Below, piece after piece: positions 2,900 through 26,959 of a DNA stretch of 64,000 nucleotides; the stretch's first letter is position 1; the number at the start of each line of letters is the position of its first letter. Under the pieces are notes generated by a model. It ran no database searches. It had not been told where the DNA came from and was given only the letters and a program-made list of their open reading frames with translations. Origin of the DNA: a phage. The position numbers were made by a program, and so were the translations under genes. Location: the NCBI GenBank assembly GCA_020619395.1, contig GCA_020619395.1_4860.1; one strand, written 5' to 3'.

Positions 2900-3736
2900 T
2901 TACTTCATAAGCCTGCGGAGCAGTTCAATTACAAATGGCTCATTCACCAGTTTTAGACAGTTATAAATACGGTCCATTGTGGTATCCTGTTTCCAGCTGT
3001 ACTTCTCTGCGGTTTTTAACACCACCCCACGCGTTTTGCGATCGAGGGGTGAAAACATTATCCCGTCGCCAAACAACGTCAGGAACGCTTTGTTAAACGG
3101 AATATGTTGGGGTTTCCCGTTAAGTTTGGTGTACCACTCCAGTTGTGTTTTCACTTTACCGGTGTGCGATTCCAACAAACCCAGTTTAGGGAAATCTTTA
3201 CGTGCCAGGAGATCAGCTGGCATGTGGGTCAGTAACAGTGTGTCGCGGCTACCCTCTGGGAAAACATCGAATTGACGGAAGTCATTTTCGTGTTTCTCAC
3301 CGTACATTTTTAAGGTGTCGTGTTCCAGTGCATTATAGTGCAGCTGGTTTGGCGTCATCTTATCCTGACCGCCTGCAATGTTTTTGAACGAGGCTTCGGG
3401 AAACACTTTGTTAGCGCTACGATAGCTACAAAGGTACGGAACGCATAACACCGAAGGGGCTACCGCTCTCGCGGTAGCCGTAAGATTATTAATATCTTCT
3501 TCAATCGATGTTAGCATCACGTCGGGTGTTAACCGTTCTCTATTCTCTTCAAACGCATAGAAGGCGTTACGGAACAATGTCCGGAGATTCAGGTATATTT
3601 CCTGATAGGAATGGATAGGCAATTCGCCTTTCCAGTCGGCGTATTCGCCGGTATGCAGCAGACCTTCAAACGCCAGCGAACTGGCGATTGACACTGAATA
3701 GAACCCGAAAGTGCGATCAACACTGATTGGATTCAT
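2900..3736 (-). CDS. hypothetical protein (278 aa)
   Basis: long ORF with AGGAAA upstream; start overlaps the stop of the upstream gene by 4 nt. Confidence 0.65.
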   Translation of the reverse strand: MNPISVDRTFGFYSVSIASSLAFEGLLHTGEYADWKGELPIHSYQEIYLNLRTLFRNAFYAFEENRERLTPDVMLTSIEEDINNLTATARAVAPSVLCVPYLCSYRSANKVFPEASFKNIAGGQDKMTPNQLHYNALEHDTLKMYGEKHENDFRQFDVFPEGSRDTLLLTHMPADLLARKDFPKLGLLESHTGKVKTQLEWYTKLNGKPQHIPFNKAFLTLFGDGIMFSPLDRKTRGVVLKTAEKYSWKQDTTMDRIYNCLKLVNEPFVIELLRRLMK

Positions 3737-21315: not shown

Positions 21316-22137
21316 TCAGCGAAGGACGTCGGTAGTCTTACCGTGAGAGTTAACCACGTAGACTTCGTCGCCTTTATAAAACAGTTCGTACAACGCACCG
21401 GTACTGATCTGGTTATCAGGATCGTATCCAGATTCTTCTTCGATGCACATTGCGCCAATCAGTTCATCGACTGACCGGTCGCCAGGGCGAGCGCCTTTTA
21501 AAACAGTAACAACAGACTCACCGTTAATCCACTGCGACTGCTCCTGGACACCAGTGAACTCGATAGATGGACCAGGCTCTAATTCGACTTGTTGCAGTTC
21601 TTCCTGAGTGTAGACAATGATCGCCATGTCGCTATCAGGAGATGGTTTGTACCAGCCTAATTTCTCTGGGGGAGTACCGAAACCAACGAGTTCGCCGCAG
21701 ATACTATCCATGGCTTCTGGTTCACATAAATTTGTCGCCAGTACCAAGATAGCATTGCCCTTATTATCTAGCACGTAGCTAATAAACTCGCGTGCGTTGC
21801 AGTTAAACACCTCGACCGTTTCCAAATCGGGGATAATAAGGTTGGGGAAAAGCTGCCGCAAATACGTGTGTGCATAAACCTGACTTTTATATAATCTGTG
21901 CGACCAGCTGCAGTAGTCAGACAAATGCATGGTGTTCGGATCAGGCACATCAGGGGCAACGCGTTTTAACCCCGGATTAAGGGCTAACTTTTCATCATCG
22001 ACAACAATGTCGAAGCGCTCGTTCTCGAGCATCTTTAACGCCTCGCGGAATACACGAGACTTACGGTCACCGATACGAACTTTTTCATGTTCGGTAATAA
22101 TGCGGTCACCATCAATTACACGTTTAACTGTAAACAT
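21316..22137 (-). CDS. hypothetical protein (273 aa)
   Basis: ORF with GGAAG upstream. Confidence 0.6.
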   Translation of the reverse strand: MFTVKRVIDGDRIITEHEKVRIGDRKSRVFREALKMLENERFDIVVDDEKLALNPGLKRVAPDVPDPNTMHLSDYCSWSHRLYKSQVYAHTYLRQLFPNLIIPDLETVEVFNCNAREFISYVLDNKGNAILVLATNLCEPEAMDSICGELVGFGTPPEKLGWYKPSPDSDMAIIVYTQEELQQVELEPGPSIEFTGVQEQSQWINGESVVTVLKGARPGDRSVDELIGAMCIEEESGYDPDNQISTGALYELFYKGDEVYVVNSHGKTTDVLR

Positions 22138-22511
22138 GTTGCTTCCTTCTTACTACTATTGCTGCTTCTATTGGTAGTCCACGACATATCCCTCGTGGGT
22201 GGGTTCGGTGTGTAACCGAATAAGTTTTTCTGTTCCCAGGGCAACGCACCAGGCTTAATTGATTTAGTTGGCAAACCAGGAACAGAAAAGGGGTATACAG
22301 ACTAGGGCGCGAGGTGGCTCTGGATGGATGCGTAAGAAAAACCCAAACGGCCCTGGCCTGTAAGTTGGCCCGAAGTCACCGTGTCGGAGGACAGCCCATG
22401 CAGGTAGGCGGCAATGGACACGGTGACCGCGGAAGTGGTTCGTGTTACCCTTGACCCGTGTGTGGATACGCGTCTTAATTCGAATGCCTTCGGGATAAGG
22501 GTAACACAAAT

Positions 22512-22592
22512 GGGGCGAGCAAACGGACGGATTCGAACCGTCGAAATATCCGATTATGAGTCGGGTGTTAATTCCTCTAACTTCGCTGCTCT
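22512..22592 (-). tRNA. tRNA-like sequence, anticodon CAU (Met or Ile2); non-canonical acceptor stem
   Basis: minus-strand T-arm GACGG-TTCGAAT-CCGTC, anticodon stem-loop CCGA-CTCATAA-TCGG and D-arm GTTA-GAGGAAT-TAAC found by hand; acceptor pairing imperfect. Confidence 0.35.
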
Positions 22593-22661
22593 TGCTTTGA
22601 CCGGACTCGAACCGGCGACCTTCCTCGAAGAGGTTGCTCTACCTACCTGAGCTACAAAGCC
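22592..22661 (-). tRNA. tRNA-like sequence; anticodon loop TTCGAGG (possible CGA) with a very short variable region
   Basis: minus-strand acceptor GGCTTTG/CAAAGC, D-arm GCTC...GAGC, T-arm GCCGG-TTCGAGT-CCGGT; isotype not resolved. Confidence 0.35.
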
Positions 22662-23706
22662 ATTGTTCATGGCATCATGATAGTTACACTCAACGTACCA
22701 CACCCCTACTGGTTTCCGTTTCGGGGGACTTAACCAGACACCATACGTCCAAGGTCGACGCTTAGGTGTGTTATCAGTTGCCTGACTGGAAATCTCTTAC
22801 GAGACGTCTACGTTGAACCGGCAAGCCGGCCATGATGTGAAGATGGGGGAACGCCCAGGCTTCCGCCCAGTCGAGTGAGGTACGAATCCTTCACTCCTGT
22901 CATCACTGATGGTGACAGCGCTCCCATTGTAAGGTGCCGGTGCATCCCGGCGTGTGTTAGTGCACTCAGCTCCCTCGGGCTTATCTGCGGCAACACGTTG
23001 CCCGGAGCACCGACATATACCACAGTAACCTCGTAAAGTCACTCTGGTATTGTTCGTTGCATACTACTAAGTTATCACGTAAACGATTTCATCACTTCCA
23101 TAAATAATAATTAACCTAAATTCATTTCTGAATGCGGGTGATGGACTTCTTCTTCTGAGCCTGGCCGCAAGGTCAGGTCTTAGCGCCTCCAAGCACCACC
23201 CGCTATCACGTACATTCGTGGCGTACCGGCCGTATGAGGTACCGCGCCTACGGTGACACACAGTCACCCTAACACTGGGAACTCAATCCCATTCGGTTAT
23301 CAGATTGTGGATTTACAGGCGTAGCGTAGCGGCTTAATGGGCCGGTGCTTGCCTGTCCCCTAGGGACGGTTGTCGTGGAGACGCCAGTCTGTAAGTGGGG
23401 CCCTTGCGGGAAAACCCATCGCCTGTAAACCAAACATGATTGAATACCCAGAACCGGACGTTGGAAATCAACATCCTGATGTACTGGAGTATTTCATGCA
23501 TAAACGTGTCTCGTATCGAATGAGGTTATGACCGGTCAGATACCCAGCATCCTGTACAAGCGACCTGGTGCTTTGTGTACCTGGCTGCTACGGATTTATT
23601 GGTCTACCGTAGGTCTGAGCTGCTACCGGCTCATGCGGGACATCAACCCGCACAATCTGAGTAAGTATCATGGCTCGAATAGGGTTAGTGGGCCGAAGCC
23701 CACTGT

Positions 23707-23961
23707 TTAGCCAGCATTGAACGATTCATGAACGACGGTCCCAGCAGGATAGTGCGTAGTGCCGATAAGAGTAACGGTCAGGGTAAGCCCTTCATCCCAG
23801 CGCTCTTTCGGTAACCAGCGGCAGTCCATCCAATGACCACAGTCGGGAGGAATTGCACACGCAGCTTGCTCCGTAGGAGCCGCCACGATTATGGAATCAA
23901 ATTCATCATACCCGATATCGTCAGTTCGTTCTAGCAAGTACAAATTCATGTTGTTCTCCAA
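23707..23961 (-). CDS. small hypothetical protein (84 aa), shares an N-terminal motif with the 191 aa protein at 24671-25246
   Basis: GGAGA 5 nt upstream of ATG; MNLYLL...IIVAAPTEQAACA...W resembles MNLYRV...VLVVLAENEEQAKSFW. Confidence 0.5.
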   Translation of the reverse strand: MENNMNLYLLERTDDIGYDEFDSIIVAAPTEQAACAIPPDCGHWMDCRWLPKERWDEGLTLTVTLIGTTHYPAGTVVHESFNAG

Positions 23962-24013
23962 CAGTTGACAAATCTGTGTCTTCTGTGTTGAACCTGAATT
24001 CGTTGGCTAAATG

Positions 24014-24089
24014 TGGCGGGGGCACGAGGTTTCGAACCTCGAACCTTCGGTTTTGGAGACCGGTGCGCTACCAATTGCGCCATACCCCC
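24014..24089 (-). tRNA. tRNA-Trp (anticodon CCA), 76 nt with encoded CCA end
   Basis: hand fold: acceptor GGGGGTA/TGCCCCC, D-arm GCGC-AATTGGTA-GCGC, anticodon loop CTCCAAA, T-arm CGAGG-TTCGAAA-CCTCG; anticodon arm identical to E. coli tRNA-Trp except one base. Confidence 0.8.
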
Positions 24090-24182
24090 AGAATTCTTTA
24101 AACGTGTTTATACGGATGCGCTACCCCGTTATCGCAGGCGATTGATGGGGTCAAGCTTGCGTGCTTCTGACTCCCGCATGAT

Positions 24183-24674
24183 TCACCTCCGTAATTCGTA
24201 AGTGCTAATCTCACCACCGGTGTAGATATCGCATTCAGACGCAATCTCAATAGCACGAACCGCACTCGCGCCCATCTTCATCGCACCCAACGCATACTCG
24301 TAACCGCTTCCGGTTGCCAGAGGTGGTGTGGCTTCACTCCACCACAACGTCACGTCGTCTTCACGTTTTCCGCCGACTATCGCTTTTCCTGAGGCCAAAA
24401 GCATCAGGAAAGTAAAATCCATCTTCGCAGGTAACTGCGAGCTTTGTGTTAACCCCTTGTAGCCGGGTCTCAAGCGGACCGTTTCCAGCAGGGCCAACTG
24501 TCCTGTGATGTCACCGCTTACTCCGAACGCCACAATCCGTTCACCAGTAATCCACCACTCCTCGTCAGGAGGACAGACGAATAACTTCTGGGTATTCAGG
24601 TTGCAGATATTCGACCCACGGGTTAACTGGCCGTCAGCAGCTAAGACTTTTCCATCGAACGCTATCGTCGTCAT
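24183..24674 (-). CDS. HslV/proteasome beta-subunit-like N-terminal nucleophile peptidase
   Basis: start at internal Met gives MTTIAFDGKVLAADGQLTRG, matching the HslV N-terminus [24 protein letters not shown]; also GSGYEYALGA and CDIYTGGE segments. Confidence 0.65.
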   Translation of the reverse strand: MTTIAFDGKVLAADGQLTRGSNICNLNTQKLFVCPPDEEWWITGERIVAFGVSGDITGQLALLETVRLRPGYKGLTQSSQLPAKMDFTFLMLLASGKAIVGGKREDDVTLWWSEATPPLATGSGYEYALGAMKMGASAVRAIEIASECDIYTGGEISTYELRR

Positions 24675-25246
24675 TGGGCCACCTTCCTCGGTGTGTACTC
24701 GAATGTCGTTTCCGTCAGGTAATCCTGGCGCATCCAAGTCAGCTCCTGGCCTTGCTCACACTTGATGTTCGTAACCAAACCGGCTTCAAGTGGTAGCTCA
24801 CAGACCGAAACGATTCCGGGTTTATCACCGTCCCAATGTGCGAATGCCGCCTCGGGGGTTGTTGCCCCGACGATGATTCCGGCGTCGACATAGTCTTCGG
24901 TAGCGACGTCGCTGTAAACCAGGTACAGCTTGATGATCGACGGTTGCTTGGCTTGGTAGCCGAAGTACACTCTGGTTTTACCCGTGGTAAGATTCCAGGT
25001 GTGTCTGGCGGATTCGGAAACAAATTCCAAACCGGGATGGGAATAATCATCCCAACGGCCTTGCTTCAGAACCACCCCAGGCGTAACCATCGGGGTAGAC
25101 ACAGCGCCGTCGTAGCAGCACGCAACCGCTGGACGCTCTGCGCTAACCGGCCAGAAGGATTTGGCCTGCTCCTCGTTTTCGGCTAAGACAACCAAAACCG
25201 ATTCAGGCATCTCGTTTCGGTAAAACCCGACGCGATACAAGTTCAT
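24671..25246 (-). CDS. hypothetical protein (191 aa) with an internal two-fold repeat; translationally coupled to the HslV-like gene
   Basis: GGAGA upstream; ATGA overlap with the downstream gene; repeat VLVVLAENEEQAKSFW / AGIIVGATTPEAAFAHW. Confidence 0.55.
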   Translation of the reverse strand: MNLYRVGFYRNEMPESVLVVLAENEEQAKSFWPVSAERPAVACCYDGAVSTPMVTPGVVLKQGRWDDYSHPGLEFVSESARHTWNLTTGKTRVYFGYQAKQPSIIKLYLVYSDVATEDYVDAGIIVGATTPEAAFAHWDGDKPGIVSVCELPLEAGLVTNIKCEQGQELTWMRQDYLTETTFEYTPRKVAQ

Positions 25247-26189
25247 GGTTTAATTCTCCGTTTGGTTTATCATACCTCACGCAGAATCTGTAAATTTTAA
25301 TCAGCCAGGTACCGTCGTTTCTCAACGGGAGTACCCACCCCTCTCGTCTATTCCGAGCCGTCAAGATCCGATCACCCCACTTTGGAGTTATCCCCCAAGT
25401 CTGCGGTTCTACACGCAGACCCCTTTTCGACGCAACGCCGAATTCGAATCAGTTTTGGCCCGACGCCAGAGCGGAATCAGCGATAACTATCGGAGGTAAG
25501 TTCAACGACGTCTCTCCGCTGCCCAGTCCTCTGGCGCTGCCACGGTCAACTCGGATTTTGTCATGGGTGCGCAGTCGACTTTCTCGACACTCTCGCAAAC
25601 CGAACTACGCCCGACGTAGCACCGTCGGCAGGTCGGTTATTTACCGAGTACCTGAATGGGTGGTGATTGTCGGAATCCCCGCCGACGCTCACCGGTTCTG
25701 TTCCACGGCGAAAGTTTTCCAGAACATAATAAATCACGCAGTGTTAGATTGCGCTTTGTCGAAGACACCACGGTAGGTATTTTCGAAAAAGCGTCCTGGG
25801 TATCAGTCCCAGGACTTGGAGCCCTAGCGTGCAGGGTTTAAAAGTGATTGGACCATTGGCGCGGTCAATCGCTATTCGCATATAACAACAAACTCACGTA
25901 ATCAAAAAATTACCGGCTCGAGGCGTAGGCGTCCAGGAGCCGGTGAGTCACACAGCAGTGAGTCCCTCTGCGGGGATTTTCGTGGAGCTTGTCGTTGGAA
26001 TAAAAATCCGTCCCCGGACGGGTTGGTGTTGTGGGTCGACTTGTCAGAGTCTACCGACCAGGGAGGCGACCACCGAAGCTATGGGTTTTGGACATCGAGT
26101 GGTGGTCTGAACACACGATAGGGAAACCACGTAAAAAATACACAGGGTACCCAAACTAGGACTTCCGTCCGATCACGATCTCTTAATAA

Positions 26190-26400
26190 GGATCACGCGC
26201 GCGCCTGCACGCGTTTTAAGATCTTAATATATTAATATATTTATTTATATAAATAATTATAATAATTAAATATAATACCTAAAGGTATTATTATATTTAA
26301 TATTATTATATATCTTTTAAAAGATCCTGGAGGATACGGGTGTGCGCACGCGCACGCGTATAAGGAAAGGGTCTTCGACCCGATCCACAGGATCAATCTA
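26190..26400. other. candidate replication origin / DNA-unwinding element: about 115 bp of nearly pure AT with palindromes, flanked by alternating CG tracts, GATC sites and a DnaA-box-like ATCCACA
   Basis: CACGCGCGCGCCTGCACGCG at the left; perfect 12-bp palindromes TTAAGATCTTAA and TCTTTTAAAAGA; central AATACCTAAAGGTATT; GTGCGCACGCGCACGCG at the right; GATCCACAGGATC at 26380. Confidence 0.4.
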
Positions 26401-26959
26401 AAAAACAATCTAAGTGATTGTTTTAAAAAGAAATTTTGAGAATTAGATTAAATTATCCCCTAAGGGGGATTTTAGAGCGAGTTAAACAACCCAAAGAACT
26501 CGTAAGTAACCGACAGTGTGTGTCGGTTACAGAACGATCCAGTTTTCACCCAGACATGGCACGAAGTGCTACCCAACGTGTGATCGTCGTCGCCGGCCGC
26601 GACCGTCGTCCCGGAACCGAAACGGGAATGGCACTCTCGCGCTCTCAGCGGCCCGCTGGCGCGATTTTCCGGTATGGGGAACCCAAGTGTACTGGGTCTG
26701 AGTTAAATCTCGTTCTAGCGCTTTCTAGAGCGTTTTTAATAACTGGTTAAAAAACATACAATCCTGAATCCCCATTCCCTGAATTTCCTCGCCCCGACAA
26801 AAATAAATTCTCTGTCTCGATACATAACCCCCTCTAAAACGCACGTAACCGACCCTAGAAAACGATAAACTGCCAAAAACGAGCTACCCTACGTCGATAC
26901 CACCTAATCGTTTTCTGATGCTTCCCAGACCCCTTTAACCGGTTGGTTAAAAAGTAACC

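Follow-up and report, generated by a model that had tools for sequence, protein, structure and literature searches.

We wondered what a phage might retain in a stretch of about 1.5 kb that appears to lack genes. The stretch in question, positions 22140-23700, belongs to a phage sequence of 64,000 nucleotides (GenBank assembly GCA_020619395.1, contig GCA_020619395.1_4860.1), which we refer to as the window. An initial annotation, made from the sequence alone, had proposed that this locus encodes structured RNAs, such as unusual tRNAs, or that it represents a decayed gene region. We consider it likely that the locus is a minus-strand island of RNA genes in which a tRNA array has mostly been lost while accessory RNA elements, most of them folded and here named E0 to E6, and a small protein gene have been kept.

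The locus (22100-23750) shares 97-99.7% identity with about 30 SPN3US-type jumbo phages of Salmonella, Escherichia and Proteus (Seoulvirus). Near-identical relatives include SPLA1a, the SPFM phages and SPN3US, and the flanking 12 kb are equally similar. By this measure, the source of the window is an SPN3US-like (Seoulvirus) jumbo phage. SPN3US itself is a giant phage related to phiKZ (PMC5105663). The region is nearly unannotated in SPN3US-type records. Existing entries comprise 'tRNA-OTHER' in SPN3US, tRNA-Ile and tRNA-Asp in Proteus phage 7 and tRNA-Asn in MET_P1_082_240.

Structured RNAs are conserved across three genera

Comparison with related genomes, one of the checks suggested at the outset, revealed conservation and covariation across Seoulvirus, Erskinevirus and Machinavirus. 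At least five elements other than tRNAs covary over the three genera, and E6 can be added within Seoulvirus, which bears out the proposal of structured RNAs. Pairing was tested against 500 shuffles and against alignments in which the partners were slid by 1-3 columns. All covarying elements outperformed 500 of 500 shuffles, in percent paired as well as in covariation score, and 30-53% of cells were paired when partners were slid. G.U pairs are frequent in the minus-strand reading and fit that strand only. The alignments show that these elements are real, that they are conserved and that their bases pair in the way described here. Proteins encoded next to the locus share only about 60% identity between the three genera, yet the non-tRNA elements are kept and contain invariant runs of 11-13 nt. 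On these comparative grounds, the locus is a conserved set of undescribed structured RNAs and not merely a decayed region.

The 5' domain E0 ends directly 5' of the AUG of a small open reading frame (ORF) and was aligned from 13 lineages. It consists of three covarying helices: H1 (about 23654-23630) with the 7-nt loop YUGRURU, H2 (about 23613-23587) and H3 (about 23583-23537), which holds the conserved internal loop ACAAAGCA. Nineteen of the 26 alifold pairs are changed on both sides (13 sequences). Cells are paired at 95.3%, versus 73.2% when shuffled and 34-46% when slid, and none of 500 shuffles was as good. Many of the pairs are G.U pairs compatible with the minus strand only.

The 3' domain E2 starts with a nested hairpin (AGC-ACCGG...CCG...GCU) enclosing the stop codon of the small ORF. 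An invariant AUGGGAUUNAGUUCCCAG hairpin and two variable, covarying hairpins follow, and a long terminal hairpin with the invariant strands GGUGCUUGGAG and GAAGAAGUCCAUC forms the end. In an alignment of 20 distinct sequences from GenBank, IMG/VR and metagenomes, 13 of 41 consensus pairs are changed on both sides; 98.0% of cells are paired versus 90.0% when shuffled and 30-44% when slid (0/500 shuffles as good). An earlier alignment gave 52 pairs, 17 of them compensatory. In 25 genomes of Erwinia phages, BLAST recognised a 220-nt core (23130-23351). When every pair of columns was scanned for long-range pairing between E0 and E2, only local helices and G.U-rich noise emerged.

E3 is the inverted repeat that had been noticed initially. 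The repeat is real, with arms at 22439-22458 and 22491-22510 that are 85% complementary; its exact GTGTTACCC/GGGTAACAC cores lie at 22442-22450 and 22499-22507, a few bases from the 22433-22505 first given. The 14-17-bp stem surrounds a conserved internal sequence, and none of 200 shuffles folds as well. Helix 1 has 17 pairs, of which 6 are changed on both sides, and is 96.4% paired in ten sequences from three genera. ACCA directly follows the stem in six of the ten sequences (the source and five Machinavirus sequences). E3 is located directly 3' of tRNA-Asn in relatives. Machina, Huxley and pSal-SNUABM-04 (pSal04) carry the E3-type hairpin twice, once after tRNA-Asn and once directly before tRNA-Asp (positions 2112-2189 and 919-1061 of the Machina locus L011; 1888-1964 and 601-743 of locus L008). 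E5 has a covarying stem of 11-12 bp and a conserved loop of about 30 nt (AUUGCCGCCUACCUGCAUGGGCUG). Seven of its eight helix pairs are changed on both sides in ten sequences, and the stem letters are wholly different in SPAsTU and Caitlin with pairing intact. Taken together, E3 and E5 comprise 28 pairs, 14 of which are changed on both sides (10 sequences, three genera).

We searched 21900-24200 against the 4227 families of Rfam 15 (E<=10, permissive filters). The two tRNA-like sequences matched the tRNA family RF00005, and none of the non-tRNA elements E0 to E6 matched a family. The ribozyme-like RNA that had also been considered found no pointer in this search, and neither ARAGORN nor Rfam detected a transfer-messenger RNA in the window. 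E2 was also compared with RNase P P4, the signal recognition particle domain IV loop, 6S RNA and group I P7; all were rejected for misfitting topology and the missing Rfam match.

Every relative examined has one copy of E0 and of E2 per genome, and neither was found elsewhere. When viral, metagenome and bacterial genome collections were scanned with exact patterns, the matches were phage contigs of 240-250 kb from this clade and, apart from these, chance hits in coding sequence. A wider spread of the E2 terminal hairpin was rejected: the 16 bacterial and 11 unrelated metagenome contigs that matched it are coding coincidences that fail the E2 profile.

A probable small gene lies between E0 and E2

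The stretch had been called ORF-free. Its longest listed ORF indeed measures 81 amino acids, but this description overlooked a conserved minus-strand ORF of 55 codons (MHEILQYIRMLISNVRFWVFNHVWFTGDGF...QAPAH) located between E0 and E2 and unannotated in SPN3US-type genomes. An ATG-initiated ORF of 55-69 codons with the same UAA stop was found in 20 of 20 sequences. Across 14 lineages, the two alternative forward frames contain 34 and 32 stop codons, and the frame of the ORF contains none. The ratio of nonsynonymous to synonymous substitution rates is 0.29-0.89, codon position 2 is the least variable and indels come in multiples of three. In each lineage there is a start codon together with a weak ribosome-binding sequence, GAG/AGGUGA. 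Judged from these patterns, the ORF is under selection to stay open, and it is very probably a real gene.

The profile of PHROG 26199 matched Machina gp9 at 1e-49 and the small ORF of the source weakly (E=1.1e-4, residues 5-33 only). Conserved position, the shared stop codon and the alignment support the idea that the small ORF is a homologue of gp9. A database search for the source's own small protein found no homologue, as no entry shares enough words with it.

The coding and the folded parts overlap. The UAA of the ORF lies within an invariant hairpin loop of E2, and its last six codons and the stop form part of the first E2 helices. We also observed a perfect 10-nt complementarity between the ORF segment 23420-23429 (UUUACAGGCG, minus strand) and 23312-23321, the 3' strand of the first E2 helix. 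The alternative pairing is possible in Seoulvirus and Machinavirus, is not kept in Erskinevirus and shows no supporting covariation. It hints that translation of the small ORF might be coupled to the folding of E2.

Two aberrant tRNA-like genes are conserved

The two tRNA-like sequences noticed initially are real and both lie on the minus strand. Their non-canonical stems could be confirmed as well; ARAGORN, another program put forward as a check, called neither of them in the source sequence. In tRNA-like 1 the D and T arms are normal, and the acceptor stem has 6 bp and a G1.A72 mismatch. Only three nucleotides (UUC) form the loop of its anticodon arm, on a stem of 4 bp, so that the source copy lacks the 7-nt anticodon loop with U33 and a readable anticodon and cannot decode. 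Acceptor, D and T arms are kept in SPN3US, SPAsTU, pSal04 and Machina; pEa_SNUABM_29 (pEa29) and pEa_SNUABM_4 (pEa4) have a different 5' half. The anticodon arm is non-standard and different in every lineage. SPAsTU, Asesino and Machina carry rod-like inserts of about 39-60 nt in this arm, and the records of Asesino and Machina label the rod-bearing version 'intron-containing tRNA-Ile(aat)'. In pSal04 the loop reads CCCGGCG, which ARAGORN calls tRNA-Pro(cgg).

tRNA-like 2 follows after a gap of 2 nt. It has a standard anticodon loop, CUCAUAA, with anticodon CAU (Met or Ile2 type). Its acceptor stem is irregular, with one extra bulged nucleotide in the 3' strand that is apparent as a gap in the Rfam alignment and in the fold. 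Homologues exist in all three genera and their acceptor stem covaries; the bulge is common to Seoulvirus and Asesino and absent in Machinavirus. The homologues are annotated as tRNA-Ile2(cat) in pEa29 and as tRNA-Ile in pSal04. ARAGORN calls tRNA-Met(cat) in Asesino and pSal04 and makes no call in Seoulvirus. The proposal of unusual tRNAs thus held, in the form of two aberrant yet conserved genes; from their distribution, the tRNA-likes are conserved oddities, not random wrecks.

An ORF of 78 amino acids on the plus strand (22414-22650) is antisense to both tRNA-likes and is listed as a 'hypothetical protein' in SPN3US (SPN3US_0003) and SPLA1a. We regard this gene call as probably spurious.

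E1 is a cloverleaf with a tRNA-like layout

E1 folds into a four-way junction of 82 nt with an 8-bp closing helix. The five close homologues have an identical arm 1 (UGUCACCAUCAGUGAUGACA). Arm 2, which has the loop AUUCGUA, covaries, and arm 3 is capped by a GGAA tetraloop. The 29 pairs are 97.2% paired versus 39-48% when slid; five are changed on both sides in four lineages, and 0/500 shuffles were as good. A covariance model, R1, identified diverged copies in Machina, Huxley and pSal-SNUABM-04 (44-45 bits, E about 4e-7). These copies have compensated arms 2 and 3 and an arm 1 cut to a 4-bp stem, and they keep the GGAA tetraloop and the closing helix. E1 is found in part of Seoulvirus, in Asesino and in the Machina/Huxley/pSal04 lineage. 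A loose E1 pattern matched three extra viral contigs, all of which fail R1 and carry no tRNAs. The coding sequence of Machina gp16 (1468-1764 of its locus) overlies the E1 homologue that R1 found at 1516-1588, and this call, too, is probably spurious.

The layout of E1 resembles that of a tRNA: a four-way junction, a single-stranded CCA tail and a tRNA slot in the array, since Asesino has E1 between tRNA-Ile and tRNA-His with 7-nt spacers. CCA directly follows the closing helix in three of five lineages (source, SPAsTU and Asesino; not pEa29 and Machina). As a tRNA proper E1 was negative with ARAGORN, had no Rfam tRNA match at E<=10 in a 276-nt search and showed no D- or T-loop signature. A descent from tRNA-His had come to mind when MAFFT placed E1 arms 1 and 2 on the anticodon and T arms of the Asesino tRNA-His, and the closing helix with CCA recalls G-1:C73. 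We rejected this idea: Smith-Waterman alignments of four E1 sequences against 102 array tRNAs scored at shuffle level, and His was not among the best.

The source lineage has a reduced tRNA array

At this site, bounded by the same two genes and in the same orientation, relatives carry an array of 3-12 ordinary tRNA genes. SPAsTU has 6 tRNAs at the site, pEa_SNUABM_29 2-3, Asesino about 10, and Caitlin, Machina, ChrisDB, pEa_SNUABM_4 and pSal-SNUABM-04 have 5-10. We mapped the break points by sensitive BLAST. Relative to 22930/22932, SPAsTU has an extra block of 877 bp with five tRNAs and pEa_SNUABM_29 one of 1150 bp that includes an HNH gene and tRNA-Tyr. Between 22510 and 22518, relatives including the 97%-identical MET_P1_082_240 have tRNA-Asn, and phage 1252 has an HNH gene at that spot. 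Because these break points are clean when set against the tRNA-carrying relatives, the source lineage is, as far as the comparison tells, one with a reduced tRNA array in which most ordinary tRNAs are gone by clean deletions.

The HNH genes (2919-3458 of the phage 1252 locus, L003; 3778-4314 of the pEa_SNUABM_29 locus, L005) encode free-standing proteins of 178-179 amino acids (Pfam HNH_3, PHROG 59) and sit exactly where tRNA content differs. The source locus has no endonuclease gene, only deletion scars. Deletions also occur among close isolates: SPN3US and about eight others lack 22667-22923, i.e. E1 and the adjacent spacer, and the SPN3US junction falls in a direct repeat, ACAATGG, which precedes both E1 and tRNA-like 1.

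Remaining features of the locus

The features of the island are compiled in Table 1. Its GC content was said to be high; at 0.50-0.55 compared with 0.42-0.49 upstream there is a mild rise, and coding DNA at 24000-26000 is equally GC-rich. Further inverted repeats lie at 22370-22385/22417-22432, 22226-22236/22279-22289 and 23129-23143/23194-23208.

Table 1. Features of the locus and its surroundings (positions in the window)
Feature	Position	Strand	Basis or remark
Flanking genes	21316-22137 and 23707-23961	both (-)	bound the 22140-23700 stretch
E6, hairpin, 11-bp perfect stem (UUUUCUGUUCC / GGAACAGAAAA)	22226-22289	(-)	inverted repeat; compared within Seoulvirus only
E5, hairpin	22374-22428	(-)	inverted repeat and alignment
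E3, long hairpin (the inverted repeat first noticed)	22438-22510	(-)	fold z-score -3.68 and alignment
tRNA-like 2	22518-22589	(-)	Rfam RF00005, 30.6 bits (gathering score 29); ARAGORN negative
tRNA-like 1	22592-22661	(-)	Rfam RF00005, 40.9 bits; ARAGORN negative
Lineage-specific spacer, about 180 nt	22662-22843	(-)	3' end motif ACAAUGG, which also precedes E1
E1, 82-nt cloverleaf (four-way junction)	22844-22925	(-)	alignment and covariance model R1
AT-rich spacer (23124-23076), then E4 leader (23075-22932)	22932-23124	(-)	alignment
E2, 3' structured RNA domain, about 245 nt	23125-23369	(-)	alignment of 20 sequences
Small ORF, 55 codons	23334-23501	(-)	between E0 and E2
E0, 5' structured RNA domain	23509-23657	(-)	nhmmer extent and alignment of 13 lineages
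tRNA-Trp(CCA)	24014-24089	(-)	ARAGORN; Rfam 65.6 bits

The only canonical tRNA of the island, tRNA-Trp(CCA), lies upstream on the same strand and outside 22140-23700. The E4 leader abuts E1 directly in the source and abuts tRNA-Tyr, the first tRNA of the array, in pEa_SNUABM_29. It is nearly invariant in Seoulvirus, with long identical runs among the source, SPN3US, SPAsTU and pEa29. In ChrisDB, pEa4 and Caitlin, nhmmer gave weak matches to it (E about 1e-3) immediately 5' of tRNA-Tyr. The E6 stem is swapped for CCGGGAUGG / CCAUCCCGG between the same UUUUC...GAAAA flanks in pEa29, a compensated change and the sole divergent comparison. A terminator-like hairpin with a T-run (22203-22221, plus strand) lies just upstream of E6 in the plus sense; no plus-strand gene is nearby, and such hairpins occur at chance-level count.

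The spacer between E1 and tRNA-like 1 gave BLAST matches (distant mode) in 26 SPN3US-type genomes only, and the corresponding gap measures about 7-25 nt in pEa29 and SPAsTU. We considered the spacer as a tRNA remnant and dismissed this in view of missing Rfam or BLAST support. A sigma-70 scan returned one site (23132-23104), at chance level. The motif AATCGTTTAC from the AT-rich spacer was rejected as a promoter motif: it occurs 14 times in the window versus 4.3 in shuffled sequence (<=1 mismatch), but its occurrences share no context and lie mostly within genes. The composition profile also shows a low-GC patch (0.34-0.37 against a background of 0.45-0.55) at about 26100-26550.

Alternative explanations

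Could E0, the 'ORF' and E2 form one non-coding RNA of about 530 nt of the GOLLD/ROOL kind, with two domains, a variable linker and no translation of the ORF? GOLLD and ROOL are phage RNAs found beside tRNA islands, and GOLLD has a conserved 3' part, a less conserved 5' part and a linker (PMC12286853). At the present locus E0 and E2 are far better conserved than the middle, GNRA-loop hairpins and a compensated stem occur inside the ORF, and the weak codon-position bias together with the lack of a database homologue of the source's small protein fits an untranslated linker. However, the frame is open in 14 of 14 lineages whereas the other two frames average 2.4 stops each, and triplet indels, a start codon and a weak ribosome-binding sequence in each lineage point to a protein. 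In Erskinevirus, the change from F-T-G to L-S-G keeps the protein and loses the RNA complementarity. Moreover, E0 and E2 are joined by no long-range helices, and no GOLLD or ROOL match was found in Rfam at E<=10. We therefore regard a single large non-coding RNA as unlikely.

The other alternatives carry far less weight. The locus might merely be a decaying tRNA array, with pseudogene tRNA-likes, a drifting spacer and chance hairpins. The array is indeed reduced, as relatives hold ordinary tRNAs there. In favour of decay, most tRNAs are lost compared with the clade, ARAGORN rejects both tRNA-likes, near-identical isolates are polymorphic for a deletion and the 180-nt spacer has no homologue. 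The elements that remain, in contrast, are conserved and folded. The non-tRNA elements persist over three genera with many compensatory pairs and invariant runs of 11-13 nt, and even the 'defects' of the tRNA-likes are conserved (a non-decoding arm in every lineage, the acceptor bulge in two genera). The covariation seen in the alignments largely refutes mere decay, which we rate as very unlikely. Still less probable is a group I intron or another self-splicing or mobile RNA with a degenerate ORF in a tRNA region. It would account for a 5' folded part, an ORF and a 3' folded part in this order, relatives do carry HNH genes and phage tRNA regions attract homing endonucleases. The strand GAAGAAGUCC bears a loose likeness to group I 'S' elements. 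Against this, no intron family of Rfam matched at E<=10, an endonuclease domain is missing from the ORF and the arrangement is fixed once per genome at one site. Consistent exons are lacking, too: the upstream gene encodes 84 amino acids in Seoulvirus and a solute receptor in Machinavirus, and the downstream side may hold a spacer, a ParB gene or different tRNAs. Finally, the region might be covered by a protein gene that a frameshift or another lesion has disrupted. The initial annotation had named a frameshifted gene of this kind as a finding that would speak against its proposal. The idea has almost nothing to recommend it. Several Arg-rich ORFs of 40-81 amino acids and tblastn matches in several frames could suggest one, but these matches fall in overlapping frames and on both strands, as nucleotide conservation alone predicts. 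Relatives carry tRNA genes and not a protein gene at the site, and Pfam and PHROGs searches are empty except for the family of the small ORF.

A retained RNA island and its possible processing

According to the reading we favour, a minus-strand island of RNA genes with a mostly lost tRNA array, homing endonucleases and short direct repeats would mark the break points of deletions that left the non-tRNA parts of the island in place. What is retained would include a folded messenger, consisting of the 150-nt E0, the 55-codon ORF and the 245-nt E2 that begins over the last codons of the ORF. It would further include the E4 leader, E1 with its tRNA-like closing helix and CCA, tRNA-like 1, the slightly defective tRNA(CAU) represented by tRNA-like 2, and the hairpins E3, E5 and E6. 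We suppose that transcription of the island proceeds from the minus strand and yields one precursor or a few. Host tRNA-processing enzymes may cut these into stable small RNAs by RNase P cleavage at the 5' ends, 3' trimming and CCA addition. Processing of this type is suggested by the 2-nt spacer between the tRNA-likes, by E1 in a tRNA slot in Asesino, by the 8-bp helix with CCA and by ACCA after E3. A precedent is provided by the T4 tRNA operons, whose dimeric precursors contain tRNAs less than 5 nt apart that are separated by RNase P (PMC11143913, citing Moen et al.). In that case, E1, tRNA-like 1 and possibly E3 would be tRNA mimics that are stable and do not decode, and E0 and E2 might stabilise or regulate the messenger of the small protein or form a separate stable RNA.

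Several observations weigh against this reading. A literature search found no expression data for the region in any relative, and transcription, processing and stability are therefore all inferred. No promoter or terminator could be assigned in the island. E4 and E6 rest on very few divergent sequences, and the 22662-22843 spacer is not conserved outside the subclade. E1 and this 180-nt spacer are missing in SPN3US and about eight other isolates and are therefore dispensable for laboratory growth. The codon-position bias of the small ORF is weak, with position 1 changing almost as often as position 3, and some of the conservation of the ORF coincides with RNA hairpins, for example CCC-GNRA-GGG over Ser-Arg codons.

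Relation to known systems and implications

The tRNA cluster of T4 contains two extra stable RNAs besides its tRNAs. The island resembles T4-type operons in its packed tRNA or tRNA-like genes on one strand, its spacers of a few nucleotides and the non-tRNA small RNAs within the array. The acceptor-like closing helices and the CCA encoded in the source and two other lineages fit as well, and by analogy RNase P processing would be expected. It differs in that the ordinary tRNAs are nearly all gone while the accessory RNAs remain, and in that these have no sequence or covariance-model similarity to described families. In addition, the source is a phiKZ-related giant phage with RNA polymerases of its own (PMC5105663, PMC7598289).

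Large multi-helix phage RNAs at a tRNA island are what GOLLD and ROOL have in common with E0 and E2, which head the array and whose covarying structure totals about 400 nt. GOLLD and ROOL measure several hundred nucleotides, and a variable middle separates their 5' domain from a 3' domain that is better conserved (PMC12286853), an arrangement similar to E0-ORF-E2. Unlike them, E0-ORF-E2 has a conserved ORF as its middle, no pairing between the domains and no Rfam match at about 530 nt, and E0 and E2 are confined to one clade of enterobacterial jumbo phages. Compared with canonical tRNAs (RF00005), tRNA-like 1 and tRNA-like 2 score above the gathering score and have standard D and T arms, but the former lacks a 7-nt anticodon loop, the acceptor stem of the latter is bulged and E1 shares the outline only. 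HNH homing endonucleases of phage tRNA regions are represented in phage 1252 and pEa_SNUABM_29, whereas the source has no such gene.

Phage tRNA islands are increasingly viewed as modules of counter-defence and translation tuning, and GOLLD and ROOL stand beside them without an assigned function. At the present locus the ordinary tRNAs are gone, yet at least six folded RNAs and a small, unannotated protein gene persist in three genera. This provides concrete candidates in phiKZ-related giant phages, both for tRNA mimics that do not decode and for the coupling of a folded RNA to a small protein. The locus is compact and genetically tractable; SPN3US is well established as a model in genetics, and isolates from nature already differ in single elements that have been cleanly deleted. 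Annotations may be corrected, too, as the 55-codon ORF is missing from SPN3US-type records and both the 78-amino-acid plus-strand call and Machina gp16 should probably be dropped. We tentatively suggest, as a possibility that we hold less likely than its opposite, that this clade of giant enterobacterial phages keeps undescribed RNA families even when tRNAs are discarded, with tRNA-like 1 and E1 acting as decoys or sponges or as amino-acid acceptors, and with E0-ORF-E2 as a new ornate RNA or ribonucleoprotein. If this were true, the targets of the decoys would be host factors directed at tRNAs, such as nucleases or modification or processing enzymes. tRNA-like 1 and E1 might instead accept amino acids for a non-ribosomal purpose, and E0-ORF-E2, whether ornate RNA or ribonucleoprotein, would be built with its own small protein.

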